Part shown: positions 3,775-63,150 of the stretch, one piece after another
How positions within the stretch are numbered: the stretch's first letter is position 1
Layout of the letters: each line of letters opens with the position of its first letter
Assembly (NCBI GenBank): GCA_014382705.1
Contig: JACNJE010000082.1
Location: 19,665 to 83,664 of the forward strand
Direction: 5' to 3'
Length of the DNA stretch: 64,000 nucleotides
From: Verrucomicrobiota bacterium
GTDB lineage: Bacteria; Verrucomicrobiota; Verrucomicrobiia; Limisphaerales; UBA1096
Made by a program: the position numbers and the translations under genes
Notes under the pieces: model-generated
The model's input: only the letters and a program-made list of their open reading frames with translations
The model's database searches: none
Told to the model about the DNA's origin: nothing

Positions 3775-3777
3775 TTA

Positions 3778-9980: not shown

Positions 9981-9992
9981 GCTGCGTTTCGT

Positions 9993-29154: not shown

Positions 29155-29175
29155 AACCTCCGCTTGGCCAACCGC

Positions 29176-30817: not shown

Positions 30818-30831
30818 CGCTTGGCCAAGCG
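30818..30831. repeat. Palindrome copy 5 nt 3' of the secretin stop codon
   Basis: Exact CGCTTGGCCAAGCG. Confidence 0.9.
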
Positions 30832-30836
30832 GGCGG

Positions 30837-32915
30837 TCATTTGCCTTCCGCCGGCTTGGCCGGGACCGGGGGCGGCGGGAAAGCCGTCGGCCCCGGTGTC
30901 GGCAGGGATTTCGGCAGGGATTTCGGCAGGCTGACGGGGGTGGAGTGGCCTCCGCCGGGCGGCTCATAGCTCACGTAGGAGCCGTTCTCATCGAGCAGCG
31001 TGGCGGTGACAAAAATCAGCAGGTACCGAGGCTTGTCGATGGAGGAGCGCTTGCGGAAGATGGAGCCGATGCCGGGCAGGTTGCCGAGGATCGGGACCGA
31101 CTCGACAATGGTACGCTGTTCACGCTCCAGCACGCCGCCCATCATTATGCTTTGGCCGGAGCCGACCACGACGCGCGTGGCGAGTTCCTGCGTTCGCCAC
31201 TGGGGGAGGTAAATCTCGAGCTTGTTCTGCTCGCCTTCAGAAGCTTCATCGAAGGTCTGGCCCTTGAGTGAGACATAGCTGACATTTTGATTCACCACCG
31301 GATGCAAGGCGATCAGGATACGTTGTCCATCTCCTCCGATACTGGCCACGACCTCCAGTGAAACGCCCGCAGTGATTTTGCTGGGGGTACCTTTTGGAAC
31401 CAAGCGTTGAGTGTATTGGCGTTCGGTCAACGTTTCCTCAATCGTAAATTCCTCGTAGAAGTAATTCACTTGGCCATCGTTGATGGAGCCTGGCCGGTTG
31501 TTGAGCAGCGTCAGGCGCGGCGCGCTAAGCAACTGGCTCTCGCCGCTCTGCTCGAGCGCGGTCAGCGCTGCAGACAGGTCGGCGTTGCTGAGGATGCTGT
31601 TTTCCTTGAACACGTTCTTGAACGTGATCCTTGTCAGCAGGCCCTCCTCGCTTCCCAGCGCCCCTGCGCCGATTCCGGTCTGGTCTTGTGGCGAATTACC
31701 CGCAACGCTGGACGCCCACCGGAAACCAAGGTCGAGAAACGACGCCTCGGAGATCGTGATGAATCGCGCCTCGATCAAAACCTGCTGAATCGGACGGTCA
31801 AACTCCTCGATGATACGCTCCAGAACCTCGAACTGCGTCGGCGTGCCGGTAGCGACGATGAGGTTCCGCTCGTAGTCGATCATAAAGTCCGGGCCCTTGA
31901 AAAACTTGGCGATGGCATCCTCGATCGACGGCCTTTTCGTGATGCTGTCGTTCACAAACATCTCATACTTGGCCGTCTCCGTGATGGTGGCCGGCCCCTT
32001 CTCCGGTTTCACGGTCACCAGCGTGGTCTCCTCCGGGCCAAACTGCGCCGGCATTATGAAGCCCTGCCGCAACCGGTAAAACCGCGTCTGCTCGATCAGC
32101 TCCTTCGACGCCTTGCCGTCGATCACCCAGATCAGATCCTCCCCAACCTGGAACTGCACGCCTGCGTTGCGTGAAATATAGCCCAGCAGCTCGCTCAGCT
32201 TCACCTTCTCGAGGCTGAGCGTCAGCTTTTGCTGAAGTGGTGCCAGCCCCTCGTCGGCGATGAAGTTGATGCCCTCTTTCCCGCCGATGTTGAAAAGAAT
32301 GTCCTTCACGGTTTGCTGATCGACCTGGATGGACACCGTGTTGTCGAGCAGGCCGGACATGCGGCCCTGCTCGCTCTGCGCGTCGAACAGAAACCCCTGC
32401 TTGGTGATTTGTTTGCCGAAGGTATCCGGAACGTACGGCTCAGCCTGAATCATCTCGAGGGCGTCGCGAATATCCTTGCGAGGCGGCAGGCCGCGGCTCT
32501 TTTGATCCTCCCAGATGTCCTTGATCGACGGGTTCATCCCGGTGTGCGTTGCATCGATCGAGCGGATGCGATCCTCAATGGCCTGCTCCCGGAGTATCGT
32601 TTTCTGCGTGGCCACCCACTCACCAATCCGCAGGAGCGTCTTGTCTTCCGGATGTTGTTGCAGCAACAGGCCCACCTCAGCCTCTGCCTCCTCCCACTTG
32701 CCCCTCTCGGACAGGCGGAAGATCGACTCGAGCTCCCGGTCGTATGCCGCGCTGTACTCCACCCGGTCGTTCAGGTTGAACGACCCGTCGTCACCCTGCC
32801 TCGACGACTGGCAGCCGGCCGCCATCACCAACGCCAAGCCGACAGCCACGCCGATGCAGCGCTTGGCCAAGCGCTGTCGGCAAGTTGCTACACTCGAATT
32901 ACAGGTTTTCATCAC
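30837..32915 (-). CDS. Secretin (type II/type IV-pilus secretion system outer-membrane channel), lipoprotein-type signal, Pro-rich C-terminus
   Basis: LLSAPRLTLLNNRPGSI... and VPILGNLPGIGSIFRKRSSIDKPRYLLIFVTATLL form a secretin C-domain. N-terminal LALVMAAGC lipobox. Confidence 0.8.
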   Translation of the reverse strand: MMKTCNSSVATCRQRLAKRCIGVAVGLALVMAAGCQSSRQGDDGSFNLNDRVEYSAAYDRELESIFRLSERGKWEEAEAEVGLLLQQHPEDKTLLRIGEWVATQKTILREQAIEDRIRSIDATHTGMNPSIKDIWEDQKSRGLPPRKDIRDALEMIQAEPYVPDTFGKQITKQGFLFDAQSEQGRMSGLLDNTVSIQVDQQTVKDILFNIGGKEGINFIADEGLAPLQQKLTLSLEKVKLSELLGYISRNAGVQFQVGEDLIWVIDGKASKELIEQTRFYRLRQGFIMPAQFGPEETTLVTVKPEKGPATITETAKYEMFVNDSITKRPSIEDAIAKFFKGPDFMIDYERNLIVATGTPTQFEVLERIIEEFDRPIQQVLIEARFITISEASFLDLGFRWASSVAGNSPQDQTGIGAGALGSEEGLLTRITFKNVFKENSILSNADLSAALTALEQSGESQLLSAPRLTLLNNRPGSINDGQVNYFYEEFTIEETLTERQYTQRLVPKGTPSKITAGVSLEVVASIGGDGQRILIALHPVVNQNVSYVSLKGQTFDEASEGEQNKLEIYLPQWRTQELATRVVVGSGQSIMMGGVLEREQRTIVESVPILGNLPGIGSIFRKRSSIDKPRYLLIFVTATLLDENGSYVSYEPPGGGHSTPVSLPKSLPKSLPTPGPTAFPPPPVPAKPAEGK
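32857..32876. repeat. Extended 20-bp perfect palindrome CAGCGCTTGGCCAAGCGCTG inside the secretin signal-peptide codons
   Basis: Read from the sequence. Translates (minus strand) as ..RQRLAKRC.. Confidence 0.9.
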
Positions 32916-34048
32916 GCTGCCGCGGCCTGGTCATCGACCAGACGATACCAGTTGTCCCGTTGTCGCGCCTCGTAGCCGATGCCCTCAATCAGGCGCCTCA
33001 TGTCCGGGACGCCCATTCGGAATGTCGTGCCGGCCTCGGAAACCACGTTCTCCTCGATCATGATGCTGCCCAAGTCGTTCGCGCCGTACCGCAGCGCCAC
33101 CTGGCCCACCTCGAGCCCCTGCGTCACCCACGAGCTTTGGATGTTCGGGATGTTGTCGAGAAAGATTCGGCTGATGGCCTGCATACGCAGGTATTCACTG
33201 GCTCCGACCTCCGGCGCGTTGAGCCGGGTGTTCTCCGCCTGAAATGTCCACGCAATGAACGCCGTGAAGCCTCCGGTCTCGTCCTGCTGACGCCGCACCC
33301 GCTCGAGGTGTTCAATCCGTTGGCCAAGCGACTCGACGTGTCCAAACATCATCGTCGCCGTCGAGGCCATGCCCAGCCGGTGCGCCACCGCCATCACCTC
33401 CAGCCAGTCGTCGCTCATCGCCTTGAGTGGCGAAATGCGCTGGCGGACCGCGTCGACCAGGATTTCGCCACCGCCGCCGGGGATCGAGCCCAGGCCGGCG
33501 TCGCGGAAATCCCGGATCAGCGTCTCCAGCGGCTCGTCGAACACGTCACGAAAATGGATGAACTCGCTGGGGCTGAAGCCGTGAATGTTGATCTGCGGAA
33601 ACTTGTCGCGGATGTGCGACAGCAGGTCGAGGTACCACTGCTTGTCGAGCTTCGGGTGATGCCCGCCCTGCATCAGAATCTGCGTGCCGCCCAGCGCGAT
33701 CGTCTCCTCGATTTTTTGGTCGATCTCGTCGTGGGTGATCACGTACGAGTCGTCCTGTTTTTCCGTCCGCCAAAACGCGCAGAACTTGCAGTAGACGTTG
33801 CAGACGTTGGTGTAGTTGATGTTGCGGTCGACGATGTAGGTGGCGATGTCGTTGCCCCGCCCGCCGTAGGCATCCGCCTTGGCCAAGCGGCGACGGCGAT
33901 CCGCCAGCGCGCCTAGCTGCGGCATCGGCAGCTCATACAGCGTTGCCGCCTCGTCGGCGCTCACGCGCCCGCCGTCCCACGCCTTTTGGCAGATTGCCTC
34001 CTTGGTGGCATCCAAGCCCACGGCGGGAATGTAGTCGTTCGCGGCCAA
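32912..34048 (-). CDS. mqnC: Futalosine-pathway radical SAM enzyme, MqnC-like (MqnC/MqnE/CofH family)
   Basis: YIVDRNINYTNVCNVYCKFCAFWR radical SAM cluster motif and GGTQILMQGGHHP. The MqnC versus MqnE choice is from memory of the RNINYTN context. Confidence 0.55.
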   Translation of the reverse strand: MAANDYIPAVGLDATKEAICQKAWDGGRVSADEAATLYELPMPQLGALADRRRRLAKADAYGGRGNDIATYIVDRNINYTNVCNVYCKFCAFWRTEKQDDSYVITHDEIDQKIEETIALGGTQILMQGGHHPKLDKQWYLDLLSHIRDKFPQINIHGFSPSEFIHFRDVFDEPLETLIRDFRDAGLGSIPGGGGEILVDAVRQRISPLKAMSDDWLEVMAVAHRLGMASTATMMFGHVESLGQRIEHLERVRRQQDETGGFTAFIAWTFQAENTRLNAPEVGASEYLRMQAISRIFLDNIPNIQSSWVTQGLEVGQVALRYGANDLGSIMIEENVVSEAGTTFRMGVPDMRRLIEGIGYEARQRDNWYRLVDDQAAAA

Positions 34049-34057
34049 AAGGCAACC

Positions 34058-34071
34058 CGCTTGGCCAAGCG
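34058..34071. repeat. Palindrome copy 4 nt 3' of the glnS stop codon
   Basis: Exact 14-mer in the 27-bp mqnC-glnS spacer. Confidence 0.9.
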
Positions 34072-34075
34072 CGCC

Positions 34076-35821
34076 TCACCCCTTTTTCTGCTGCTTGGCC
34101 CAGGCGTCGCGAAGGGTGACGGTGCGGTTGAAAACCGGCCGGCCGGGCCGGGAGTCGGTGGCGTCGGCGCAATAGTAGCCGGATCGCTCGAATTGGAACC
34201 GCTCGCCCGGGGCCGCCTTGGCCAAGGCCGGCTCGAGCCGGGCATCGCGGATCACCTCCAGCGAGCCGGGGTTGAGATGGTCGAGATAAGTTTTGCCGTC
34301 CTCCTCCCTGTTCGGATCCTCGACGGTGAATAACCGGTCGTACAGCCGCACCTCCGCCTCGTGCGCGTGCGCCGCAGAGACCCAATGGATCGTGCCCTTG
34401 ACCTTGCGCCCGTCCGGCGCGTTGCCGCCGCGTGTCTCCGGGTCGTAGGTGCAGTGCAGCTCGGTCACCTCCCCGGCGGCGTTGCGGATGACCTCGTTGC
34501 AGGTGATGAAATAGGCGAACCGCAGCCGCACTTCGCGCCCCGGGCCAAGCCGGAAAAATTTTTTCGGCGGCTCCTCCATGAAGTCGTCCCGCTCGACGTA
34601 AATCTCGCGCGAAAACGGCACCATGCGCGTCCCGGCTTCGGGGTTCTTCGGGTGGTTGGCCGCCTCGAGCTCCTCGACGGTGCCCGCATCGAAGTTCGTG
34701 ATCACGACCTTGAGCGGCCGCAGCACCGCCAACCGGCGGGGCGTGGTGTCGTTCAAGTCCTGTCGGATACTGTGCTCGAGCAGCGCCATGTCGGTGAGGC
34801 TGTTGAACTTGGTCATGCCGACGGTTTTGCAAAACGCCCGGATGCCCGATGGCGTGTAGCCCCGGCGGCGCAACCCGGAGAGGGTTGGCATGCGCGGGTC
34901 ATCCCACCCGCTGACGCGCCCCTCCTCAACCAGCGTGAGCAGCCGGCGCTTGCTCAACACGGCGTAGGTGAGGCTCAGCCGCGCAAACTCAATCTGCCTC
35001 GGCCGGCAGTCGATGGTCACATTGTCGAGCACCCAGTCGTACAGCGGCCGGTGCACCTCGAACTCCAGCGTGCAGAGCGAGTGGGTGATGCCCTCAATCG
35101 AGTCGGACAGGCAGTGCGTGAAGTCGTACATCGGGTAGAGGCACCACTGGCTGCCGGTGCGGTGATGCGGCATTTTGCGGATGCGATACAGCACCGGGTC
35201 GCGCATGTGCAGGTTTGGCGAGGCCATGTCGATCTTCGCCCGCAACACCCGTGTGCCATCTGCAAACTCGCCGTCGCGCATTCGCTCAAAAAGCGCCAGG
35301 TTTTCCTCCGGCGACCGTTCCCGAAACGGGCTGTTCGTTCCCGGCTTGGTGGGCGTGCCCCGGTGCTCGGCGATCTCCTCCAGCGTCAGTTCACAGACAA
35401 ACGCCTTCCCGGTCTTGATCAACTCGACCGCGAACCCGTACAGCTTCTCGAAATAATCGGAGGCAAAAAAGATATTGTTACCCCATTCGAAGCCGAGCCA
35501 TTGGACGTCCTCCTTGATTGAGTCGACGTACTCGACGTCCTCCTTTGCCGGGTTCGTGTCGTCGAAACGCAGGTGGCAGATGCCGCCCTTATTTTCCTGC
35601 GCAATGCCGAAATTGAGGCAGATTGACTTGGCGTGGCCAATGTGCAGGTAGCCGTTTGGCTCCGGCGGAAAGCGGGTCACCGTGGAGGCGTGCCTGCCGT
35701 TGGCCAAGTCATCCGCAACGATTTCGCGTATGAAATCAAGCGACTCCGGCTTGGCCTCGCCGGTGTCAGGATCCGCGGATATGTTGGTTTGAATTCCCAT
35801 TTCAAGTGGCTCGCTGGCCAA
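34076..35821 (-). CDS. glnS: Glutamine--tRNA ligase
   Basis: [16 protein letters not shown] (HIGH), VLSKRRL (KMSKS-like), and the full-length class I GlnRS architecture. Confidence 0.95.
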
Positions 35822-35874
35822 GCGGCAGCGAAACAGGCAGCGTAATTAAGCCACAAAACAAAGGAAAGCGCATT

Positions 35875-35888
35875 AGCTTGGCCAAGCG
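35875..35888. repeat. Palindrome copy 8 nt 3' of the uvrD stop codon
   Basis: aGCTTGGCCAAGCg. Confidence 0.9.
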
Positions 35889-35895
35889 CGGACGG

Positions 35896-37929
35896 CTATT
35901 CCAGTGACGCCTTGAGTCTGGAAAAAAAGTCGCGCTCCTCCTCCTCCGAGACCGGTTCCGCGTCGTCGCCATGCACAATCAACTCCCCAGGGATTTCCTT
36001 CAGGAACGGCGACGGATGGCAGGGAATCAGTTCGCCAAACTTCCGCCGACTGCCGCAATGGCTCATGGTGAGTGTCTTTTGTGCCCGAGTGATGGCCACG
36101 TAAAACAACCGGCGTTCCTCATCAACCGTCCCCTCGACCTTGGAGCGGGCGTGCGGGATTAAGCCATCCTCTACGCCGGCGATGAACACGTGCGGGAACT
36201 CAAGCCCCTTGCAACTGTGCACGGTGATCAGTGTCACCGCATCTCCGGCTTCCTCCTCCTCGTCGCGTTCGCGGTCGAGTGAGATATGCTCAAGATAGCG
36301 GTGAAGCCGTTCCGGCACCGACCGGTTCGCCGGGCAAAAACCGGGGTCCATCGAGTCGAGCAAATCGACGATGTTGCGCACACGGTTTTCGGCGGTTTCC
36401 TCGTCCTTTTCTGTTCGGCGAATTTCACGGAACAATCCCACCTCCTCAAGCCAACCGTTGCACCATGCCTTGAGCGGGGCGGCTGGATGAACGGCAGCCG
36501 GGCGGTTCAGCCGCTCGTTGACCGACTCCACCAACTCAACAAAACCGATGATGCTGTCCACCGTGCGCCGCTTAAACTGGCCAAGCGCGGCCTCGTCGCG
36601 CATTACGCCGAACACCGAACAACCGCGCTCCTGGCTCAAGCCGAGCAGTTGCTCCATCGTGGTGTTGCCCAGTCCGCGCGCGGGGACGTTGGCGATGCGC
36701 AACAAGCCGGTGTCGTCGTCGGGGTTCAGGAACAGTTTCAGGTAAGAGACAAAATCCCGGATCTCGCGACGGTCAAAAAAGCTCTGCCCGCCGACGAGAT
36801 TGTAGCGGATCTCCGCCTTGCGCAGTGCCGTCTCAAGCGGACGGGATTGCTGGTTGGTGCGGAACAGGATCGCCTGATCGCGCCACCTCACTTTCTTGAT
36901 GCTGCGGTTGTACTGGATCTCCTCCACCAACGCCCTCGCTTCCTCCTCATCATCACGGAAATCCCAGAGCTTGACCGGCTCACCATCGCCCTTGTTGGAC
37001 CAAAGTTTTTTCTCCCGTCGCTGGATGTTATTTTTGATGACCGCGTTGGCGGCCTCGAGGATCGTGTTGGTGGATCGGTAATTCTGCTCGAGCCGGATGA
37101 CCTGGACATCGGGGAAATGTTTCTCGAGGTCGAGCAGGTTGGCCACCTCGGCCCCGCGCCACCCGTAAATGCTCTGGTCGTCGTCGCCGACGACGCAAAA
37201 GTTTCGGTGCGCCTTGGCCAAGCTGTGAACGAGCTGGAACTGCGAACGGTTCGTGTCCTGATACTCGTCCACCATGATGTAGCGGTAACGCTCGCGGCAT
37301 TCGTCGAGTGCCTCCGGGAAACCGTCGAACAACCGCAACACAAGCAGAATCAAGTCATCAAAATCAACGGCATTGCTGGCTTTGAGCGTCTGCTGATAGG
37401 TCGAAACCAAGCGCTTGGCCAAGCCGGCCAACTCCTGGTCCTCGGCGATGAGTTCGTCGCTGTCGGTGTTGCGCCATCGGCTGATCAGCGACAGGACGGC
37501 TTGAGGATCCGGCTTCCTCGACCCAAGCGAGATGCGGCTCAGAATGCGGCGTACCACGCCGAGTTGCTCGGCTCCATCGTAGATGACAAAGTTTTTTTTG
37601 TAGCCGAGCTTTGTGATGTGCCGGCGCAAAATGCGGACGCACAGCGAGTGGAATGTGCAAATAGTTGGCCGCTCCGCTTGGCCATTTTCATCGATGAGGC
37701 GGCGCTTGGGCACGAGGCTTTTCACCCGATCCTGCATCTCGCGGGAGGCTTTGTTGGTGAACGTGACGGCGAGAATGTTTCCGGGCCGGATGCCACGCGA
37801 GATCATGTATGCCACCCGGCTGGTGATGACGCGCGTCTTGCCGGTGCCGGCACCGGCGAGGATGAGCAACGGGCCCTCCACGGTGTGCACGGCCTGCCGT
37901 TGCTCGGGGTTCAGCGAGGAAAGCTCCAT
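35896..37929 (-). CDS. uvrD: UvrD/PcrA-family ATP-dependent DNA helicase
   Basis: LILAGAGTGKTRVI Walker A, YIMVDEYQDTN, VGDDDQSIYGWRGA and VTLITVHSCKGLEF motifs. Confidence 0.9.
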   Translation of the reverse strand: MELSSLNPEQRQAVHTVEGPLLILAGAGTGKTRVITSRVAYMISRGIRPGNILAVTFTNKASREMQDRVKSLVPKRRLIDENGQAERPTICTFHSLCVRILRRHITKLGYKKNFVIYDGAEQLGVVRRILSRISLGSRKPDPQAVLSLISRWRNTDSDELIAEDQELAGLAKRLVSTYQQTLKASNAVDFDDLILLVLRLFDGFPEALDECRERYRYIMVDEYQDTNRSQFQLVHSLAKAHRNFCVVGDDDQSIYGWRGAEVANLLDLEKHFPDVQVIRLEQNYRSTNTILEAANAVIKNNIQRREKKLWSNKGDGEPVKLWDFRDDEEEARALVEEIQYNRSIKKVRWRDQAILFRTNQQSRPLETALRKAEIRYNLVGGQSFFDRREIRDFVSYLKLFLNPDDDTGLLRIANVPARGLGNTTMEQLLGLSQERGCSVFGVMRDEAALGQFKRRTVDSIIGFVELVESVNERLNRPAAVHPAAPLKAWCNGWLEEVGLFREIRRTEKDEETAENRVRNIVDLLDSMDPGFCPANRSVPERLHRYLEHISLDRERDEEEEAGDAVTLITVHSCKGLEFPHVFIAGVEDGLIPHARSKVEGTVDEERRLFYVAITRAQKTLTMSHCGSRRKFGELIPCHPSPFLKEIPGELIVHGDDAEPVSEEEERDFFSRLKASLE

Positions 37930-37980
37930 CCAGCGGCGCGGCTTCAGGAGTGGGAGAAAAACATAGAGGGATCGACCCGG

Positions 37981-37994
37981 CGCTTGGCCAAGCG
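37981..37994. repeat. Palindrome copy 1 nt 3' of the wzc-like stop codon
   Basis: Exact 14-mer. Confidence 0.9.
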
Positions 37995-37995
37995 G

Positions 37996-40392: not shown

Positions 40393-40400
40393 GGATACGG

Positions 40401-41036: not shown

Positions 41037-41037
41037 C

Positions 41038-42321: not shown

Positions 42322-42473
42322 AGTTTGTGGCCGGTGCTTAATCCGGCCGTTCCTCCCCGCGCACGGGGCCGACTTGGGTACGCTTTTTGCCAAGGGATTG
42401 CAAAGCAATAACAGCCAACGGTTTGGCGGTTTTTCTCCTTTCCGCCGAGTCGGGGCGTTCCTACTCTGCGCGC

Positions 42474-43409: not shown

Positions 43410-44517
43410 CGCCGAGCTGACTTTTTGGATGCGCGCTCCGTTCGTGTTTTGGAGCTTCGTGTTCTTCGTGTTTGGCGCGGTAGTCGGCAGTTTTCTCAAC
43501 GTCTGCATTTACCGGATGCCACGCGACTTGAGCTTGGCCAAGCCGGGGTCGCAGTGCCCCAAGTGCGGCTTTGCGATCCCGTGGCGGCTGAATATCCCGA
43601 TCGTGAGCTGGCTTTGGCTGCGTGGGAAATGCCGGCAATGCGCCGCCCCGATCTCACCGCGCTACCTCGGCGTCGAGTTGCTCACCGGCTTGGCATTTCT
43701 CGCAAGCTGGCTGGCGTTTGGGGAGCAAACGACGACGGGAGTGCTTCTGGCGTTGACGTGGGGCTTCGTGCTCGCGGGGCTGATCGCCGCGACATTCATC
43801 GACTTCGAGCATTTCATCATCCCGGACCAAATCACGCTTGGCGGCGTGGCGGCGGGCTTTCTCGTCTCGGCGGCGTTGCCAGCGCTGCATGATGTTGCCG
43901 AGCCGACCGACTCGCTGATGGCGAGCGGAATGGGCATCCTCGTTGGCGCCGGATCGGTGCTCGCCGTGCTGCAACTGGGCAAACTGCTGTTCGGCAAGGT
44001 CCGGGTGACGCTTGGAGACGGCGAGCCAGCAATCTTTACCGAATCAGCGCTGCACCTGCCGGACGAAGTCGTGCCGTATGAGGAGATCTTTTTTCGCAAC
44101 TCAGATACGATTCGCCTGCACGCCAGGCGGGTGGAACTGATCGACCGCTGTTACACTAATCTCGACGTGGCACTCTCGCCCAAGCGGTTGACGATCGGTG
44201 ATGAGTCATTCGACCCGGAGACGGTTCCGTTTCTCAAGGCGGAGACGGATGAACTGGTGATCCCACGCGAGGCGATGGGGTTTGGCGACGTGAAATTCAT
44301 GGCGGCCATCGGCGCGTTCGTCGGCTGGCAGGGGGCGCTGTTTTCGCTGATGGCCAGCGCGGTGGTTGGCGCGGTGGTCGGGGTGGTGCTGATCGCGATC
44401 GGCCGGCGCGACTGGTCGGCACGACTGCCATACGGGCCGTACATCTCGCTGGCGGCGGTGATCTGGATTTTCTTTCGCGAGCCGATCGTCGCCGCATTGC
44501 TCCCGCCTGGCCCATAG
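43399..44517 (+). CDS. Prepilin peptidase (A24 family) with a ~95-aa insertion before the GxGD active-site motif
   Basis: GSFLNVCIYRMP, zinc motif CPKCG...CRQC, first Asp region FIDFEHFIIPD, and second Asp motif AMGFGDVKFMAAIGAF. Confidence 0.8.
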   Translation: MMSDAELTFWMRAPFVFWSFVFFVFGAVVGSFLNVCIYRMPRDLSLAKPGSQCPKCGFAIPWRLNIPIVSWLWLRGKCRQCAAPISPRYLGVELLTGLAFLASWLAFGEQTTTGVLLALTWGFVLAGLIAATFIDFEHFIIPDQITLGGVAAGFLVSAALPALHDVAEPTDSLMASGMGILVGAGSVLAVLQLGKLLFGKVRVTLGDGEPAIFTESALHLPDEVVPYEEIFFRNSDTIRLHARRVELIDRCYTNLDVALSPKRLTIGDESFDPETVPFLKAETDELVIPREAMGFGDVKFMAAIGAFVGWQGALFSLMASAVVGAVVGVVLIAIGRRDWSARLPYGPYISLAAVIWIFFREPIVAALLPPGP

Positions 44518-44539
44518 GCCAAGCGCTTGGCCAAGCGGA
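44517..44539. repeat. 1.5-unit palindrome filling the 23-bp convergent spacer between the prepilin peptidase gene and purF
   Basis: GGCCAAGCGCTTGGCCAAGCGGA, identical to 388..410. Its first base is the last base of the prepilin peptidase TAG stop. Confidence 0.9.
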
Positions 44540-44540
44540 G

Positions 44541-48316: not shown

Positions 48317-48476
48317 GGCAGTCGCCGCGCGGAGGGCGGGGCGTTGGGGGGTGAAACGGAGTCTTCAAGGGATCGGTTCGCATCAGTTCCGGCAACCGGT
48401 CGCGGCAAGATAGGGAGGCGAAAAACCGGATGCAAGTCCCCCCTGAAAATAGATGCCAAAAAAGGGGGAGGAAGAC

Positions 48477-48633
48477 GCCCTCTCCCAGCAGGAGAGGGCT
48501 GTGGAGAGGGAGAAAACAACCGACGTTCCGGAACTCAAAGCAAACAAATCCTTCTTCAACGATGGCGTCTTAAAAAAACCCCAGCGTTTCACCCTCATCC
48601 GGCCTGCGGCCACCTTCTCCCTGAGGGAGAAGG
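48477..48633. repeat. Two REP-like hairpins in the purL/S8-protease divergent spacer
   Basis: GCCCTCTCC-CAGCA-GGAGAGGGC (48477-48499) and CCTTCTCCC-TGA-GGGAGAAGG (48613-48633). Confidence 0.55.
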
Positions 48634-48745
48634 AATCAAGTGGGATGCGCTTGGCCAAGTCCCGGCCGTGAACTTGCCAAGACGCGGACGCTCACACAGG
48701 ATGCGGCGGCGCGGCCACCGCTTGGCCATGCGCCAAGCCAGCCTT

Positions 48746-51700
48746 ATGAGCCGCTTCCTGCATTTTCCCATTCTGCGTCACATTTGCCTGCTTTGGCTAG
48801 TCACGGGGTTGCCGTTGGCCAAGGCGGCCGAGCCGCCCGCCGCTTTGCCGCTGCTGGTGCAGCTCGAGGGGCAGGCGCTGGTTCCGTTTTATCTGGAGCA
48901 ACAGCAGGCCGGCCTCGGGCGCGTCGCGCTTGGCCAAGCGGTACGGCGACAGGCCAAGCGCATCGCCGCCGGGCAGGACGCGTTGGCCAAGCGGCTCGAG
49001 GCGGACGGTGTCCGGGTGACCCGGCGCTACTCCCGGCTTGTCAATGCCATGCGGGTTCGGGTCGCCCCGGAGAAGAAGGCCGCTTTGGCCAAGCAGGCCG
49101 GCGTGAAACGAGTTGAGCGGTTGCGGGTTTACGCGCCGCTCACCGCGAAAAGCGTCCCCGCAGTCGGCGCCAAGACAGCGTGGGGCACGCGCGCCACCGG
49201 CTTCGACGGGGCTGGCATGCGCATCGCCGTGATCGACTCCGGGTTGGATTACACGCACGCGATGTTCGGCGGCGCCGGCACGAAGGAGGCGTATCAGTCA
49301 AACGACGCCAACAAAGTCGAGGAGGGCACCTTCCCCACCGACAAGGTCGATGGCTGGGATTTTGCCGGCAGGGACTACTCCGGCGAGGAGGACGTGCCGC
49401 TGCCGGACGGCGACCCGCTCGACCGGTCCGGTTACGGCCACGGCACCCATGTCGCGGGGATCGTCGGCGGAGTCGGCGTGACAAAGCAGGGCCAGCCGTA
49501 TGACGGCGACTACTACGCTGGGCTGGATTATTCCAGCTTCCTCCTCAAGCCGGGAGTGGCCCCGAAGGCCAAGTTGTATGCGCTGAAGATTTTCGGCGAC
49601 AACGCGCTCGGCACAACGAACCTCGTCCTCGACGCGCTGGAATGGTGCGCCGACCCCAATGGCGACAACGACTTTTCCGACCGCGTCGACGTGGTCAACC
49701 TTTCGCTCGGCTCCACGCTGGGCCTCGAGGAAAAACATGAGGCCGAGGCCGAGGTGTTCGCTCACCTCACGCGGCTGGGCTGCGTGATCGTCTCGGGCGC
49801 TGGCAACTCGAACAACAACAATTTCTACCTCGTCGCCGCGCCCGGAGTGGAGCGGTCGGTCATTGCCGTCGGCTCGGCCAAGCACGACGGCGAGGTGTAC
49901 CGCATGGCAGCGCACAGCGCGCGCGGGCCGTCCTCCCCGTACAGTCTGCTCAAGCCGGAGATCACCGCGCCGGGTGAGTTGATCCAGTCGGCCAGGATGG
50001 GGACTGGCACCGGCGGCGCGTGGTTCACCGGCACCTCGCTGGCCACACCGCACGTTGCCGGGGCGGCCGCCTTGGCCATGCAGGCGCATCCCGGCTGGAG
50101 CGCCACCGAGATCAAGGCATCGCTGCTGAATACCGCCAACCCGATGCGGCACCAAAACGGCACGCCGTACCCGGAGTCACTTGCCGGAGCCGGGTTCCTC
50201 GACGTGGCTCGCGCGGTCACCACCCCCGTGACGGCCATGGCGGAGGGCAACGACGGGCTGACGACGCTGTCACTCGGCGCGCTGGCCCTCGCCAAGCCGT
50301 GGGAGGAGACACGGCAAATCCGGGTGGCCAACCATGGCGACACGGCGGCCCAGTTTGCCCTGTCCATTGAGGAAACGGTTACGGAAACCGGCTTTGGCGT
50401 CGAGTTGCCGGTGAATCAAGTCACCGTCGCGGCCGGGTCGCACGAGTTGGTGCCGGTGCGATTCCACGCCGACCCGGCCCAGTTCGACCGCACCGGCGAC
50501 CCGCTCACCCCGGCCAAGCTCAACGACCGCGCCCGAAGCTGGATTTACGAGGTCAGCGGCAAGGTCGTGCTGGCCAACGACACCGGGAAACTGCGGGTGC
50601 CGTACCACGCCGTCGTCCGCGCCGCCGCAGACCGGAAAAGCTCACTGTCCCGGCTTGGCCTGCCGGCCCGCGATCTCGTGACGCTCGAGCTGCCGCTCGA
50701 GGGCGGCTCGGCGCACCCGAGGCCGCTGGTGTCGGTGTTCGAGCTGGCCGGGATCAGCCCGCGCAACAAGTTGCTCACCGACCCGGCCGACATCGCCGCC
50801 GACATACTGGCGTTCGGCGTGGCGTCGGACTACCCGCAAACCGGCTCGGTGGCGGAGACGACGCTTTACTTCGGCATCGCCAACGCCGGGCCATGGACGA
50901 ATCCGCACTCGTTCCTTTACGACCCGCACCTGCAGATCGACATCGATTTCAACGGCTGGATCGACCACGAGCTGGCCAGTTGCAGCAACGGCGGCTTCAT
51001 CAAGGATGACCTCACCGTGTCCGCCTACGCCGACGACGTGTTTCTCTCCATCCTCATCCGTGTGCCACGCGATGAGCGCGGCATGGCCGATGCCGGCTAC
51101 CTCAACGTCTTCCCGCCGAACCAGTACGACACGGTGCCGTTCAACAACAGCGTGATGGTGCTCCCGGTCCCGGCGCGCTTGCTCGGGCTCAACGAGGAGA
51201 AAACTGACTTTCAATTTCGCCTGCTCAACCTCGGCCCGGAGCAGTACGGCTACCCGGAGATCGACCGCACGGAGCTGATCCGCTACGACGTGACCCAGCC
51301 GGTGGTGCACTCGGCGCTGGGCATCGGCGGCACGGTGATGCACGACGCCAACGCGCCGGTGCACGTCGCCGTGGACCGCGGCTTGGCCAAGCGGAACGGC
51401 CTCCGGCCCGCCGTGCTGCTGCTGCACCACATGAACAGCGGCGCCCACAAGTTCGACATCGTGGCGCTTGGCCTCGATGCGGACGACGGCGACGGTGACG
51501 GGGCGAGCGACGCCGACGAGCTTGCCGCCGGGACCGACCCGGCCGACCCGGCCTCGGTGTTCGCCATCCTGGCAGCGAGGCCAAGCGCGCCCGGCCCGGA
51601 GATCCGCTGGCACAGCGTGGCTGGCAAATCGTACCAAGTGCAGCGGACCGCCGCGCTTGGCCAAGCGTTCGAGACCGTCTCCGGCCCGCTGCCGGCCACC

Positions 51701-51775
51701 CCGCCGGTCAACGTGTTCATCGACAAAAGCGCGCCCGGGGAGGGGGCGTTTTTTTACCGAATCGTGAAACCGTGA
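48746..51775 (+). CDS. Secreted subtilisin-like serine protease (peptidase S8) with a C-terminal acidic Ca-binding-like repeat
   Basis: Catalytic triad contexts VIDSGLDYTH (D), GHGTHVAGIVGG (H) and GTSLATPHVAGAAALAM (S). Signal peptide MSRFLHFPILRHICLLWLVTGLPLAKA. The ORF upstream of 48746 is treated as non-coding. Confidence 0.85.
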   Translation: MSRFLHFPILRHICLLWLVTGLPLAKAAEPPAALPLLVQLEGQALVPFYLEQQQAGLGRVALGQAVRRQAKRIAAGQDALAKRLEADGVRVTRRYSRLVNAMRVRVAPEKKAALAKQAGVKRVERLRVYAPLTAKSVPAVGAKTAWGTRATGFDGAGMRIAVIDSGLDYTHAMFGGAGTKEAYQSNDANKVEEGTFPTDKVDGWDFAGRDYSGEEDVPLPDGDPLDRSGYGHGTHVAGIVGGVGVTKQGQPYDGDYYAGLDYSSFLLKPGVAPKAKLYALKIFGDNALGTTNLVLDALEWCADPNGDNDFSDRVDVVNLSLGSTLGLEEKHEAEAEVFAHLTRLGCVIVSGAGNSNNNNFYLVAAPGVERSVIAVGSAKHDGEVYRMAAHSARGPSSPYSLLKPEITAPGELIQSARMGTGTGGAWFTGTSLATPHVAGAAALAMQAHPGWSATEIKASLLNTANPMRHQNGTPYPESLAGAGFLDVARAVTTPVTAMAEGNDGLTTLSLGALALAKPWEETRQIRVANHGDTAAQFALSIEETVTETGFGVELPVNQVTVAAGSHELVPVRFHADPAQFDRTGDPLTPAKLNDRARSWIYEVSGKVVLANDTGKLRVPYHAVVRAAADRKSSLSRLGLPARDLVTLELPLEGGSAHPRPLVSVFELAGISPRNKLLTDPADIAADILAFGVASDYPQTGSVAETTLYFGIANAGPWTNPHSFLYDPHLQIDIDFNGWIDHELASCSNGGFIKDDLTVSAYADDVFLSILIRVPRDERGMADAGYLNVFPPNQYDTVPFNNSVMVLPVPARLLGLNEEKTDFQFRLLNLGPEQYGYPEIDRTELIRYDVTQPVVHSALGIGGTVMHDANAPVHVAVDRGLAKRNGLRPAVLLLHHMNSGAHKFDIVALGLDADDGDGDGASDADELAAGTDPADPASVFAILAARPSAPGPEIRWHSVAGKSYQVQRTAALGQAFETVSGPLPATPPVNVFIDKSAPGEGAFFYRIVKP

Positions 51776-51886
51776 CCGCCGTCAGGGCGTATGCCCTTTG
51801 CCCCGTGCAAGGGCGAACCGCGAATTATGCAGACTCATTTTCTTCAGATTGACGAACGGGGGCAAATCACGCACCCTCACCGCCCC

Positions 51887-53488
51887 ATGTCCCTGAAACG
51901 ATTTTTTTGCGGGCTCACGACCCTTGCAGCGCTGGCCTCGGCCGGTGCCGCCGAGATTCCCAGCGGCGCTGTTACACTGGAACAGTGCATCCAGATCGCG
52001 CTCGAGAACAACCTCAACCTCCGCATCTCGAATTACCAGCCACGGCTGGCCGGGCTGAATCTGCAGGGGGCCTACGGCGCGTACGACCCACGGCTGAGCC
52101 TCGGCGGCACCGACGGATTCCGCGAAAGCAAGGGCCGCTACAATCCACTCGAGTTCACCATCCCGTCCAGTGAAACCGATTCGTTCCGGCACAACATCGG
52201 CCTGAACGGCCTGCTGCCGTTTGGCACGCGCTACAGTCTCGGCCTGAACTCCTCCGAGACCACCGGCTCCGACGCGTTTGATTTTCCGTTCGGCAGTTAC
52301 GGCACCGGGTTTTTTGCCACGGTCACCCAGCCGCTCCTCCGGGGTGCGTGGATCGACGGCACGCGGATGAGCATCAAGCTGCAAAAGCAGCAGGTTGAGA
52401 ACTCCTCCCTCACCGTCATCCGGCAAATCACGCAGACCGTGTCCAGCGTCGAGCTGGCCTACTACGCACTCATCGCCAGCCGCGAGAACGTGACCGTCGC
52501 CGAGGAGACCCTCGCGTTGACGGAGAAAAACTACAGCAACCAAAACCGCCGGGCGGAACTCGGCACCCTGGCCAAGTCGCAGCTGCCCCAGCTCGAGGCC
52601 GAGGTCTTTTCACAGAAAGCCTCGCTGCTCTCCGTCCAGAACAGCTACGCCGACAGCGTCAACAACCTGAAGCGCCTCTTGACCGACGATTTTGCCACCG
52701 TCCAGAGCACCGAGCTGCTGCCGGTCGGGGAACTCAACCCGGTGCAGACCGTGTTCAGCCGCAACGACAGCTGGAGCAAGGCCCTCAGCCAGCGCCCGGA
52801 GATTCTCCAAAGCCAAATCTCGCTCGAGAACGCCGACATCCGGCTCAGGTTCAACAAAAACCAACTCTACCCCCAGCTGGATCTGCGCGCGACCTACGGG
52901 CTCTCCGGCAGCGACACCGCCGAGACCCTCCACCGGTACCCCGACGGTACCGTGTCCAAGAATCCGTACAGGGATCCCATCACGAAACGGATCGTCTCCA
53001 CGGCGTTTGTCGATAAGGCGGCTTCGTTTAATTCCGCCTTCCGGGACATCCGGCACGGCGACTACCCGAACTACTCCATCGGCCTGACCTTCAGCATCCC
53101 GATCCCCAACCGCTCGGCCCGCGCCGGCTACAAGGCCGCGCAGTTGCAGAAGGAGCAGGCGGTGTTGCAGCACAAGGAGCTGGAGCAATCCATCATGCTC
53201 GAGATCGACCGGCTCATCCGCGACGCCGAGTACCGGTTCGAGCAGATCTCCGTCACGCGGCAGGCGCGGCTCAGCAGCGAACTGGCTCTCCAGCACGAAA
53301 CCAAGCGGTACGACGAGGGGGCCATCGAGAACTATCAGGTGCTGCAAGCCCAGCGGGATCTCACCAACCGGCGCTATTCCGAGATCAACGCGAAGGTGCA
53401 ATACCTCACGGCGCTGTCGCGCCTGGCCCAGGCCGAGGGCAGCACGCTCGAGAACAACAACATCAACGTCGAGTTCGAGGAGGAGTAA
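51887..53488 (+). CDS. TolC-family outer-membrane efflux protein
   Basis: Signal peptide MSLKRFFCGLTTLAALASAGA. Two-repeat OEP architecture (LEQCIQIALENNLNL..., ...YQVLQAQRDLTNRRY...YLTALSRLAQAEG). Confidence 0.75.
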   Translation: MSLKRFFCGLTTLAALASAGAAEIPSGAVTLEQCIQIALENNLNLRISNYQPRLAGLNLQGAYGAYDPRLSLGGTDGFRESKGRYNPLEFTIPSSETDSFRHNIGLNGLLPFGTRYSLGLNSSETTGSDAFDFPFGSYGTGFFATVTQPLLRGAWIDGTRMSIKLQKQQVENSSLTVIRQITQTVSSVELAYYALIASRENVTVAEETLALTEKNYSNQNRRAELGTLAKSQLPQLEAEVFSQKASLLSVQNSYADSVNNLKRLLTDDFATVQSTELLPVGELNPVQTVFSRNDSWSKALSQRPEILQSQISLENADIRLRFNKNQLYPQLDLRATYGLSGSDTAETLHRYPDGTVSKNPYRDPITKRIVSTAFVDKAASFNSAFRDIRHGDYPNYSIGLTFSIPIPNRSARAGYKAAQLQKEQAVLQHKELEQSIMLEIDRLIRDAEYRFEQISVTRQARLSSELALQHETKRYDEGAIENYQVLQAQRDLTNRRYSEINAKVQYLTALSRLAQAEGSTLENNNINVEFEEE

Positions 53489-53499
53489 GCCAAGGCGAA

Positions 53500-53587
53500 G
53501 GGAGGGACGAGTTCCACCTAGTCCCAAATGTTAGCCGCGGTGGTGTCACCAAAAAAAGTTTCGGGCGAGGTGGAACTCGCCCCTCCC
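53500..53587. repeat. Long inverted repeat (19/20 bp arms, 48-nt loop) in the tolC-like/EEP convergent spacer
   Basis: GGGAGGGACGAGTTCCACCT (53500-53519) against AGGTGGAACTCGCCCCTCCC (53568-53587). A related GGGACGAGGTGGAACCCGTTCCTCCC lies at 63118-63143. Confidence 0.7.
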
Positions 53588-53588
53588 C

Positions 53589-53604
53589 GCGCTTGGCCAA
53601 GCGC
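53589..53604. repeat. 16-bp palindrome GCGCTTGGCCAAGCGC touching the EEP gene stop codon
   Basis: Read from the sequence. The same 18-mer CGCTTGGCCAAGCGCTA occurs at 54492. Confidence 0.9.
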
Positions 53605-54449
53605 TACTCCAGCGTGATAACCGCCGTGACCGGCAGATGGTCGCTGGGGTATTGTTTCGTGTTGTCGTACAAGACAATCTCCGCCTCGGACACGCCCACC
53701 GTCCCCTTCGTGGCGAGCACCCAGTCGATCCGATTGTTACCCCTTTTATTTTGGCGAAACCCGTTGAAGGTGTTCCAGCCGGTGTTCAGCGCCTTCTTGG
53801 CCGTCAGCAGCGTATCCTCAAACCCGCCGCCGATCAGAGTCTTGTATGCCTTGTTGTGGAACGCTGTGGCGTTGAAGTCGCCCACCAGAATCACCGGCAG
53901 CTTGGTCTTCAGCGCTTTCACTTTTTTTGCGATCAACTCCGATGAGTTTTCCCTGGCGTTCTGCGACTGGTGATCGAAATGCGTATTCCAAAAGTAAAAT
54001 TCCTTTTTACTTTCCCGGTCTAGAAACCGCACCCACGTCACCATCCGCGGCAGCTCGTTGCCCCACGACGTGGAGGCAATCACGTTCGGCGTGTCCGAGA
54101 GCCAAAAGTCGTCAAATTCCAAAACCTCGAACCGGTCCGGCTTATAAAAGATCGCCATGAACTCACCACGGCTCCCGCCGTCGCGGCCGGTGCCCAGCCA
54201 GGTGTACTCCGGGATTTTCGAGCTCAACTCCTTGAGCTGATAAAACTTCCCCTCCTGCGTACCGATGATGTCGGGGTTGTTTTTTTTGATCAGCTCCGCC
54301 ATGGGTGGCAGGCGATCCGGCCAGGCGTTGGGCTTGCTGTTGCTGGCAAAACGGATGTTGTAAGTCATCACCTTGAGGGACTCGTCCGCGGACAAGCTTG
54401 GCTGAAGGAACAGCACACCGACAATTGAGAGAAGCAGGGTTGCTCGCAT
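53604..54449 (-). CDS. Endonuclease/exonuclease/phosphatase (EEP) family protein, secreted
   Basis: LKVMTYNIRF..., IGTQE, WNTHFDH, VGDFN and SDHLPV motifs of the EEP fold. Confidence 0.7.
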   Translation of the reverse strand: MRATLLLSIVGVLFLQPSLSADESLKVMTYNIRFASNSKPNAWPDRLPPMAELIKKNNPDIIGTQEGKFYQLKELSSKIPEYTWLGTGRDGGSRGEFMAIFYKPDRFEVLEFDDFWLSDTPNVIASTSWGNELPRMVTWVRFLDRESKKEFYFWNTHFDHQSQNARENSSELIAKKVKALKTKLPVILVGDFNATAFHNKAYKTLIGGGFEDTLLTAKKALNTGWNTFNGFRQNKRGNNRIDWVLATKGTVGVSEAEIVLYDNTKQYPSDHLPVTAVITLE

Positions 54450-54491
54450 GCGCCTTGCCTACGCGAATCACCGGTCGTCTACAAGCGGCAA

Positions 54492-54505
54492 CGCTTGGCC
54501 AAGCG
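54492..54505. repeat. Palindrome copy abutting the AEC permease stop codon
   Basis: Exact 14-mer immediately followed by CTA (the TAG stop on the minus strand). Confidence 0.9.
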
Positions 54506-55465
54506 CTATTGCCCGATGAATTTCAGATCCAAAAACGCCGCCCCGGCCCGGAGCCAAAGCGGGATCGTGGCCAGGCTGACCAGTGTCGTGGCGATCGCCA
54601 CCTGCGTCGCGATCACCGGGCTGCCGCCGTACATGCGGGAGATCAAAATCGGAAACATCGCCGCCGGCATCGAGGCCTGAATCAGCAACACCTGCCGCAG
54701 CTCGGTCGAGCACGGTAGCCATTTCGCCGCCGCAATCATCAGCACCGGCAGCAGCCCTATCCGCAGAAGGATGCTGGTCCAGCACACGCGAAATGCCGAC
54801 CGGAATTCGCACTCGGCGAAGTACTCCTTCATCATCGCCCCCATCAACAGGATCGACATCGGGATGGCGCACATGCCGAGCATCTCGATCGACTTGGCGG
54901 CCACCTCCGGGATGTACTCGCTGAGCCCGGTGGCATTCACGATGAGCGCAGCGACCACCGAGAGAAACGGTGCGTTGAGCGCCTTCTTCCATGCCGTGCT
55001 GAGGTCGCCATGCAACAGCATCACGCCAAGCGACCACATCGCCAGCAGGGTCCCCACATTAAACACAAACAACACCGCAACGGCATTGGCGCCAAAGAGC
55101 GACTCGCTGAGCGGGATCGGCACGAAACCGAAGTTGAACACGCCGATCGTGATGGCGTACGTGCGCGCCTTCGGCCCGGTCTCGCCCGTGGCATAACGCC
55201 GCACCATCCAGCCCACCACTATGCCAATCGCGATGGAGAAAAAACCCACCACCGGAGGCAGCCAGACGTTCTCCGGCTGGCGAATCGCCTCGTTGCCGCT
55301 GATCTTGCTGAAGGCCAGGCAAGGCAGCAGCACGTTCATCGCCACGCGCATCAGGCTGTCGTCCGCCTCACGGGTCAGCCAGTTGATCCGGCGAAATTGG
55401 TACCCCAAAAACGTGATCAAAAACACCGGCACCACCGCCGAGAAGACTTTTAAAATTTCGGCCAT
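54506..55465 (-). CDS. AEC-family (auxin efflux carrier-like) permease
   Basis: 319 aa with about 10 TM segments. N-terminal MAEILKVFSAVVPVFLITFLGY and overall similarity to the membrane-transport (Mem_trans) family. Confidence 0.7.
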   Translation of the reverse strand: MAEILKVFSAVVPVFLITFLGYQFRRINWLTREADDSLMRVAMNVLLPCLAFSKISGNEAIRQPENVWLPPVVGFFSIAIGIVVGWMVRRYATGETGPKARTYAITIGVFNFGFVPIPLSESLFGANAVAVLFVFNVGTLLAMWSLGVMLLHGDLSTAWKKALNAPFLSVVAALIVNATGLSEYIPEVAAKSIEMLGMCAIPMSILLMGAMMKEYFAECEFRSAFRVCWTSILLRIGLLPVLMIAAAKWLPCSTELRQVLLIQASMPAAMFPILISRMYGGSPVIATQVAIATTLVSLATIPLWLRAGAAFLDLKFIGQ

Positions 55466-55480
55466 CTGCGCTTGGCCAAG

Positions 55481-56020: not shown

Positions 56021-56021
56021 A

Positions 56022-61135: not shown

Positions 61136-61149
61136 CGCTTGGCCAAGCG
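61136..61149. repeat. Palindrome copy in the hsp70/lipoprotein divergent spacer
   Basis: Exact 14-mer, 16 nt upstream of the lipoprotein ATG. Confidence 0.9.
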
Positions 61150-63099: not shown

Positions 63100-63150
63100 G
63101 TTTCCCGGTTCCTGATTGGGACGAGGTGGAACCCGTTCCTCCCGCAGCTC

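Follow-up and report, generated by a model that had tools for sequence, protein, structure and literature searches.

A candidate lineage-specific highly iterated palindrome in Verrucomicrobiota, with spacer copies gathered just behind stop codons

The stretch considered here, hereafter the window, comprises 64,000 nucleotides (nt) from a Verrucomicrobiota bacterium (GenBank assembly GCA_014382705.1, contig JACNJE010000082.1, positions 19,665 to 83,664), and our subject is a short perfect palindrome, the 12-mer GCTTGGCCAAGC, that recurs in its genes and spacers. Spacer copies of this word gather directly behind stop codons, and their link to gene 3′ ends is real: it is sharp, it is replicated in other contigs, and it is conserved at orthologous gene ends. 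The original prediction for this DNA had likened the palindrome to an intrinsic transcription terminator and suggested that it is used, or tolerated, as a 3′-end element. Gene calls were those of a public collection for metagenome contig NODE_1041 of ENA ERZ24794645 (116.7 kb), with their Pfam hits, and are independent of that prediction; window coordinates equal record coordinates minus 5743. By these calls the window holds 60,207 nt of coding DNA (94.1%) and 3,793 nt (5.9%) of non-coding DNA.

With respect to abundance, the 12-mer is present in 41 exact copies, approximately one per 1.5 kb, whereas dinucleotide-preserving shuffles predict 0.02. Its 8-mer core, TTGGCCAA, is found 86 times versus 0.74 expected, a ~116-fold excess, and the densities of the two forms in the 64-kb window correspond to 1,340 per Mb for the core and 640 per Mb for the 12-mer. 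The full form is the 14-mer CGCTTGGCCAAGCG (28 copies in the window); the 10-mer CTTGGCCAAG occurs 65 times and 16-mers six times, and the hexamer TGGCCA, with 152 copies, tops all 6-bp palindromes in over-representation (7-fold). Exact 12-mers outnumber their one-mismatch variants (41 versus 26), and 18 of those 26 deviate solely at the two outermost bases. When the flanks of the copies were compared, no conserved sequence was found beyond ~16 bp around the palindrome, so that the unit is a word rather than a longer element, specifically a perfect palindrome of 12–16 bp with stems of 5–8 bp. A larger conserved unit resembling a miniature inverted-repeat transposable element (MITE) was considered in the same comparison and rejected. 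The spacing of the window copies is near exponential, that is, random (coefficient of variation ~1), and the regular spacing of HIP1, the highly iterated palindrome GCGATCGC, is not seen in this small sample. Tandem arrangements of 1.5–2 copies with a 12-nt period (..CCAAGCGCTTGGCCAAGCGCTTGG..) are frequent, as at 44518–44537 and 387–408 in the window and at 2904–2935 and 9961–9984 in two related loci (L091 and L092); they yield a second palindrome, AAGCGCTT, at the junction, and suggest local slippage or duplication.

A literature search for the exact word returned unrelated primers only, and no published repeat of this kind from Verrucomicrobia was found, nor any account of a HIP-type word that gathers in this position behind stops. 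An Rfam scan of the window gave no match at the palindromes, its sole match being a full-length SAM riboswitch (RF00162, 88 bits) at 24114–24230 on the plus strand, upstream of a PALP-ThiS-NIL cluster that starts at 24324. Viral contigs scanned for the 14-mer showed single copies per contig at chance level and no phage carrier.

The distribution of the 41 copies between genes and spacers is markedly uneven. Genes hold 26 (63%) and spacers 15, which amounts to 0.43 versus 3.95 copies per kb, a 9.2-fold ratio (binomial p=5.6e-9); the counts and the ~9-fold contrast of the original prediction are thereby reproduced with independent gene calls. Longer forms of the word are more strongly enriched in spacers (8-mer 4.2-fold, 14-mer 11.9-fold), which indicates that coding constraint mostly trims the flanks. 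The 15 spacer copies are as follows.

30819–30830, copy 6 nt after the secretin stop (30837–30839, minus strand) and 86 nt before the PurH start, with a T7 run 14 nt further downstream
34059–34070, copy 5 nt after the GlnS stop (34076), in a 27-nt spacer
35876–35887, copy 8 nt after the UvrD stop (35896), in a 95-nt spacer
37982–37993, copy 2 nt after the stop (37996) of the Wzz/GNVR/ParA gene, in a 66-nt spacer
44525–44536, copy that takes up the 23-nt spacer separating two convergent genes, prepilin peptidase (stop ends at 44517) and PurF (stop 44541), with a half copy, GCCAAGC, before it
53589–53604, 16-bp palindrome sharing its last base with the EEP stop codon (53604–53606, minus strand), in a 115-nt convergent spacer
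54492–54505, 14-mer abutting the stop (54506–54508) of the Mem_trans (AEC) gene and reading TAG-CGCTTGGCCAAGCG
63151–63174, 24-bp extended palindrome TTTTGCGCTTGGCCAAGCGCAAAA, mid-spacer, 57 nt after the LpoB stop, in the order T4-stem-A5, with a folding energy of −11.3 kcal/mol
5268–5279, copy in a divergent (start-to-start) spacer
11417–11456, two copies (11417–11428 and 11445–11456) in a 70-nt divergent spacer
19033–19153, three copies (starts 19033, 19066 and 19142) in a 148-nt divergent spacer between a histidine kinase gene and AP_endonuc_2
61137–61148, copy in the divergent spacer between HSP70 and hyp438

All seven stop/palindrome pairs named in the original prediction (secretin, GlnS, UvrD, the Wzz-like gene, PurF, EEP and AEC) are correct. 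The prediction had also attached many of the spacer copies to gene ends. Adjacency to stops does exceed chance; 7 of the 15, however, are in divergent spacers, away from any stop. By spacer type, densities in the window are 4.9 (divergent), 4.3 (codirectional) and 2.6 (convergent) per kb. Shorter or imperfect forms, and one copy that also lies within a gene, were found at four more gene ends.

55471–55480, 10-mer core CTTGGCCAAG right after the TAA of the gene at 55481–56020; the 15-nt spacer (55466–55480) to the Mem_trans start is nearly all palindrome
29161–29175, region of the near-variant GCGGTTGGCCAAGCGG, beginning directly after the PurH stop (29176)
15904–15915, copy 3 nt after the hyp165 stop (plus strand, ends at 15900), also within the final codons of a histidine kinase gene in convergent orientation; a T7 run follows
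9409–9422, variant CCGCTTGGCCAAGG, inside the fumarase beta subunit gene among its final codons, 4 nt 5′ of the stop

The near-variants at PurH and at the 55481 gene had been proposed to adjoin stop codons and do so; the third, in the fumarase beta gene, had been placed beside the stop and in fact lies inside the reading frame. The spacer at 55466–55480 reads TAA-CTTGGCCAAGCGCAG-ATG and is too short for a Shine-Dalgarno sequence. The TAG-CGCTTGGCCAAGCG arrangement has been met in six independent cases.

In terms of statistics, 7 of the 8 copies in stop-bearing spacers of the window lie at most 8 nt from the stop, versus 2.4 expected from uniform placement within their own spacers (p=1.5e-4). 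The effect recurs in other sequences. Screening JGI metagenomes for the 14-mer gave 120 loci, from which we kept 53 contigs carrying the core at a density of at least 0.4 per kb (the carrier contigs; 360 kb in total, GC 53–64%, many of them marine). Genes on these contigs were called with a purpose-written, codon-usage-based open reading frame (ORF) caller, which recovered 51 of 52 gene 3′ ends in the window with zero false ends. Stop-bearing spacers of the carrier contigs contain 28 copies, and 16 of these are no more than 10 nt from the stop, versus 7.9 expected (p ~2e-4). Stop adjacency exceeds chance in both data sets.

The shape of the peak was resolved by pooling the window, the 53 carrier contigs and L092, a syntenic locus from a relative whose UvrD is 77% identical. 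In the pooled profile the density of the 12-mer is 10.0 per kb in the first 15 nt after stops, 1.6 per kb from 15 to 30 nt and 0.5–1.4 per kb beyond 30 nt, compared with 0.73 per kb in the last 15 nt of genes and 0.2–0.4 per kb deeper in genes. The first 15 nt hold 31 of the 47 downstream copies; measured to the 8-mer core, the distance distribution is about flat from 1 to 12 nt and falls after that. Overall, the word is present behind ~15–20% of gene ends. Of the 6 copies found in long convergent spacers (100 nt or more), 5 are no further than 12 nt from a stop, and past 24 nt there is none among ~2,400 positions; in codirectional spacers of the same minimum length the density is 8.6 per kb near stops versus 0.6–1.4 per kb away from them, and in divergent spacers the pooled profile is flat, at 2–4 per kb. 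Crowding by promoters or ribosome-binding sites, considered as the sole cause of stop adjacency, is ruled out by the persistence of the peak in the long convergent spacers. A general preference for hairpins just after stops is ruled out as well, as non-motif hairpins are depleted there: perfect hairpins with stems of at least 6 bp occur at ~2 per kb in the first 30 nt after stops versus 3–4 per kb further out. This rarity of generic hairpins marks the first dozen nt after the stop as a structure-poor zone.

Conservation was examined in relatives. A search with UvrD identified syntenic loci at 93, 89, 86, 86 and 77% UvrD identity, and the closest genome in a species-level collection is a metagenome-assembled genome labelled Verrucomicrobiales (L008), whose GlnS is 84% identical, all other GlnS matches being at most 67%. 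All syntenic relatives carry the core far above chance, with a density that spans ~3-fold (0.45–1.46 8-mers per kb). Stop-adjacent copies occupy the same place in five orthologous spacers: Wzz-UvrD, UvrD-GlnS, GlnS-radical SAM, secretin-PurH and PurH-Rce1. In the two high-density relatives, L088 and L091, 8-mers of the window are conserved at 73–100% of sites versus 28–45% for control 8-mers. Specifically, L088 retains 79% of in-gene copies and 5 of 5 stop-adjacent copies (controls 45%), and L091 retains 73% and 5 of 5, respectively (controls 28–32%). In the lower-density relatives L089, L090 and L008, in-gene conservation is near background and the stop-adjacent copies have mostly decayed, with no compensatory changes seen at the decayed sites. 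At individual sites, the copy behind the secretin gene (30819–30830) is kept in L088, L089 and L091 and decayed in L090, and that behind the Wzz/GNVR/ParA gene (37982–37993) is conserved as far as L092. L008, which is syntenic and 78% identical in nucleotide sequence, has a GC content of 51% versus 62–63% in the window, a large change in composition for such close relatives, alongside its 3-fold lower motif density.

Copies inside genes show how the word is accommodated in coding DNA. The 26 in-gene copies of the window fall between 395 and 61574, with the following starts.

395–61574, 12-mer starts at 395, 2933, 3155, 5202, 8252, 12089, 12144, 12843, 15716, 15904, 15967, 22168, 22293, 22640, 32861, 37413, 40966, 42635, 43532, 46524, 48928, 51381, 51655, 58095, 60165 and 61563

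All three reading frames are used, the encoded peptides in the pooled data being LGQA (80), RLAK(R) (51) and AWPS (11). Of 20 in-gene sites at which the 10-mer is missing from a relative, 8 encode the same peptide, and most of the others differ by K/R. One segment stands apart in composition: the hyp179 and Nramp genes (55481–57374) have a third-position GC of 0.58–0.65 versus ~0.8 elsewhere and carry zero copies of the word, and this segment may be recently acquired DNA.

Orthologous spacers with an intact or a degraded copy are of equal length and differ by substitutions. Taken together, these equal lengths, the excess conservation in high-density relatives and the same-peptide differences within genes point to spread by substitution, under what appears to be a lineage-dependent, sequence-specific force. 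The same observations bear on the possibility that the palindrome is a miniature mobile element, akin to a MITE or to the repetitive extragenic palindromic (REP) elements mobilized by REP-associated tyrosine transposases (RAYTs), that inserts preferentially beside stop codons. Its high copy number, palindromic form and enrichment in spacers would suit such an element, as would the tandem arrays described above and one 23-nt indel flanked by GCGCT repeats that distinguishes L090 from L091 in the UvrD-GlnS spacer. An insertion, however, is hard to reconcile with orthologous spacers that keep their length with or without an intact copy, or with in-gene copies that are in frame and depart from the sequences of relatives through synonymous or conservative substitutions. 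Moreover, nothing is conserved beyond ~16 bp, the gap between stop and palindrome varies in both length and sequence, and no transposase-like gene is present among the ~75 genes seen. We therefore consider a mobile element highly improbable.

With respect to transcription termination, the original prediction had compared the palindromes to intrinsic, partly bidirectional terminators of the kind formed by paired DNA uptake sequences (DUS) in Neisseria. An intrinsic terminator has a GC-rich stem, typically of at least 7 bp, with a folding energy of about −8 kcal/mol or stronger. The computed hairpin energies here are weak, at −1.1 kcal/mol for the 12-mer, −3.5 for the 14-mer and −6.9 for the 16-mer, and a stable stem of the terminator type is therefore absent from all three forms; the 24-mer, at −11.3 kcal/mol, is stronger. 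Arms are no longer at stops (mean 6.5 bp) than in other spacer copies (6.3 bp, p=0.34). No enrichment of U-tracts was found 3′ of stop-adjacent copies, a T-rich tail (at least 5 T in 8) following 19% of them versus 24% on the opposite side, and an A-tract test at the same copies was also negative. The 24-mer at 63151–63174 is present as described, but the U-tract/A-tract symmetry of a bidirectional terminator attributed to it is not: on both strands a T-run precedes the stem (5′) and an A-run follows it (3′), opposite to the layout of a terminator, and the T4-stem-A5 order places A's after the hairpin whichever strand is transcribed.

Where T-runs do occur they lie at a median of 34 nt after the stop, downstream of the palindrome, and separate hairpin-plus-T structures follow the palindromes at several sites. 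One of these is in the window, and others are in loci L192 and L168.

53563–53582, minus strand, an independent, terminator-like GC-rich hairpin with a T-run, just downstream of the EEP-adjacent palindrome

The case for terminators is not empty. Copies do sit at gene ends, a few are followed by T-runs (15904 and several metagenome loci), and a consensus scan for terminators includes 34058–34071 on the minus strand. Co-option of the word as a canonical terminator is clearest downstream of efp (L333 ~16425–16455, record ~75,400, outside the window), where an 11-bp stem with the palindrome at its core precedes a T6 run, GCGCCCCGCTTGGCCAAGCGGGGCGTTTTTT; a minority of copies is like it. Against these stand, in addition to the weak stems, the missing U-tracts, the polarity of the 24-mer and the separate downstream structures, the presence of some copies in operon-internal spacers of 15 and 27 nt, and a density in divergent spacers as high as in the others. 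Nor are the copies confined to gene 3′ ends, given the 7 of 15 spacer copies in divergent spacers and the 26 of 41 in genes. On sequence grounds, the copies as a class are not terminators, and we rate this account of them as very improbable; the absence of compensatory change in relatives, noted above, also fails to bear out the analogy.

Two further repeats occur in spacers and are recorded here in their own right. A second family, AGGTGGAAC(T/C)CG(T/C)(C/T)CCTCCC, has copies at 53500–53519 (minus strand), 53568–53587 (plus strand) and 63124–63143 (plus strand). Two of its copies form a long inverted repeat filling the OEP/EEP convergent spacer, the whole of which folds at ~−70 kcal/mol, and two of the three lie directly 5′ of a palindrome copy. 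A third spacer element, ...TCTCCCTC..GAGGGAGAAGGTGGCCGAAGGCCGGATGAGGG, lies downstream of stop-adjacent palindromes at two unrelated loci, L092 ~17510–17560 and L129 (in the spacer after the gene at 3338–4057), and a string resembling it, GGGAGAGGGCCGGGGAGAGGG, is found in the PurH-Rce1 spacer of L091.

A different kind of use would be a REP-like one, in which a hairpin near the stop either collides with the terminating ribosome and tunes translation of the upstream gene, or blocks 3′-to-5′ exonucleases and so keeps the ORF complete after Rho-dependent termination and trimming. This proposal draws on the sharp 0–14 nt window behind stops, convergent spacers included, and on the conservation of all five stop-adjacent copies in each of two relatives (versus 28–45% for control 8-mers). 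It also has a precedent in Escherichia coli, where REPs under 16 nt away from a stop are reported to affect upstream translation (PMC12306157). Its difficulty lies in the hairpins themselves, which at −1 to −7 kcal/mol are very weak, are no longer in stem at stops than elsewhere, and would have to act in a zone that generic hairpins avoid. In addition, it is the sequence that is conserved and not the pairing, orthologous copies decay uncompensated in relatives of lower genome-wide density, genes contain 63% of copies, and 7 of 15 spacer copies are in divergent spacers. We regard this as a tentative possibility, with the odds against it.

The reading we favor, at a probability of roughly 0.55, is that the palindrome is a lineage-specific highly iterated palindrome, that is, a DNA word rather than a mobile element or a dedicated terminator, whose copies gather in a ribosome-shadowed zone behind stops. 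A sequence-specific force acting on DNA would keep the word hyper-abundant genome-wide in a clade of uncultured, mostly marine Verrucomicrobiales, with copies arising and decaying by point substitution. Within genes, codon choice would build the word wherever the protein permits LGQA, RLAK or AWPS. The 0–14 nt behind stops may be the one stretch of a 94%-coding genome that is free both of coding constraint and of RNA or regulatory constraint. A terminating ribosome covers about a dozen nt of mRNA 3′ of the stop codon and melts structures there. Any hairpin within the 0–14 nt zone would consequently be melted and inert, and a strongly driven word could be expected to peak in frequency at that position. 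A minority of copies, in extended form, appear to have been recruited as cores of genuine hairpin-plus-U terminators.

In this respect the suggestion that the motif is used, or tolerated, as a 3′-end element stands, with tolerance fitting better than use. Tolerance is preferred because sequence rather than pairing is conserved, because stems are weak and do not lengthen near stops, because stop-adjacent copies decay together with the genome-wide word in lower-density relatives, and because most copies are in genes or divergent spacers.

As to what drives the word, candidates include a dimeric protein that reads the 14-mer, a conversion bias linked to methylation or repair, as proposed for HIP1, and a bias in uptake or recombination, as for the DUS of Neisseria and the uptake signal sequences (USS) of Pasteurellaceae. 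The last of these may be framed as a rival on the driver only, in which the machinery for competence or the type IV pilus would recognize the 14-mer, and molecular drive would multiply it at any site that tolerates it; this rival competes with a methylation- or repair-based driver and leaves the placement argument untouched. The density of the word, the dominance of its exact form, its frame bias, its substitutional origin and its lineage-specific abundance all parallel DUS and USS, the window encodes a secretin and a prepilin peptidase, and HIP1 reportedly makes transformation of Synechococcus more efficient (bioRxiv 10.1101/2024.09.10.611283). Known uptake signals are non-palindromic, however, competence is not known in this clade, and genes for type IV pili occur too widely to be diagnostic. 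We regard an uptake driver as quite unlikely.

Several points weigh against a tolerated, highly iterated palindrome. The 6- to 10-fold fall in density from 0–15 to 15–30 nt is steeper than simple tolerance would readily give, and as this fall is seen even in long convergent spacers, which contain no promoter or ribosome-binding site, there is room for a positive function at that position. An additional ~20 kb of the same genome contributes three copies in stop-bearing spacers, which lie 13–26 nt from the stop rather than within 12 nt; the same-genome test of stop adjacency that includes this sequence gives p=0.005. The driver itself was not found, with no methyltransferase, Vsr-type nuclease or transposase among the ~75 genes seen on ~84 kb. 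Gene starts are uncertain, the ORF caller recovering just 29 of 52 gene 5′ ends in the window, and start-dependent tests were held to a minimum for this reason. Finally, all figures come from ~450 kb of sequence and none from complete genomes. A stronger version, under which the 14-mer would be a true functional signal, either read within ~12 nt of the stop by a lineage-specific factor or the terminating ribosome (stop-coupled control or insulation) or serving the first uptake-signal-like system in Verrucomicrobiota, appears to us rather unlikely. If true, such a stop-read signal or uptake system would be the first case in which a highly iterated palindrome is linked with a defined molecular position.

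The favored reading carries wider implications. To our knowledge, highly iterated palindromes, familiar essentially from cyanobacteria, have puzzled researchers for ~30 years, and the present word would be an independent example, with a different sequence, in a different phylum and in uncultured marine bacteria. Its positional signature, in which copies fill a ribosome-sized zone behind stops that other hairpins avoid, would offer a comparative handle on what drives such words and on the sites at which they are harmless or useful. In annotating these genomes, one should avoid reading a gene-end hairpin as a terminator by default.

Comparison with known systems places the word more closely. DUS and USS are non-palindromic, form hairpins solely as inverted pairs, and have a role in uptake that has been shown experimentally. 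The present word resembles them in occurring once per 1–1.5 kb, in the dominance of its exact form, in its bias of frame and peptide, in its enrichment in 3′-end spacers and in contributing some terminator stems; it differs in being palindromic, and the likeness is one of sequence. With intrinsic terminators it shares a GC-containing hairpin downstream of genes and, in a few cases, a T-run, whereas the class as a whole lacks a U-tract, has weak stems, includes many divergent and in-gene copies, and is followed in places by separate canonical terminators.

The likeness to the REPs of E. coli is chiefly one of position. Approximately half of classical REPs lie within 15 nt of a stop, and they are reported to stall ribosomes at that distance only (PMC12306157); REP hairpins also stabilize 3′ ends without terminating transcription (PMC12642595). 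Here, too, palindromic repeats lie in large share within 15 nt of the upstream stop (31 of 47 downstream copies). REPs, however, are imperfect palindromes of 20–40 nt with stable stems, are strictly extragenic and are mobilized by RAYTs. The present word has 63% of its copies in genes and stems of 5–8 bp, and its copies arise by substitution; neither the strictly extragenic distribution of REPs and of bacterial interspersed mosaic elements (BIMEs) nor their 20–40-nt imperfect palindrome with a conserved head is found, and no RAYT (Y1 transposase) gene is present among the ~75 genes on ~84 kb of this genome.

The closest parallel is HIP1. HIP1 is present at 300–2700 copies per Mb, with observed/expected (O/E) ratios of 55–228 (PMC4390886), and spreads by substitution under a lineage-dependent force (PMC5861425; PMC4390886). 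Like HIP1, the present word is a short perfect palindrome with hundreds to thousands of copies per Mb, an O/E of ~100 and a strict core with palindromic extensions. It is likewise found in genes, in all three frames, and in spacers; it spreads by substitution, its orthologous sites are more conserved than control words, and its abundance varies between close relatives. Abundance, presence in all frames and in non-coding DNA, and conservation with substitutional turnover are thus all found, and what is lacking is GCGATCGC in a cyanobacterial genome: the word is another one (core TTGGCCAA, 12–14 bp), the phylum is Verrucomicrobiota, and no cognate methyltransferase was found among the ~75 genes seen. 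For HIP1, no sharp peak over the 15 nt that follow stops has been reported, and a 2018 analysis of HIP1 left the first 10 nt after stops out of its non-coding set (PMC5861425). With its different word and its Verrucomicrobiales host, the palindrome is best described as HIP-like rather than as HIP1.

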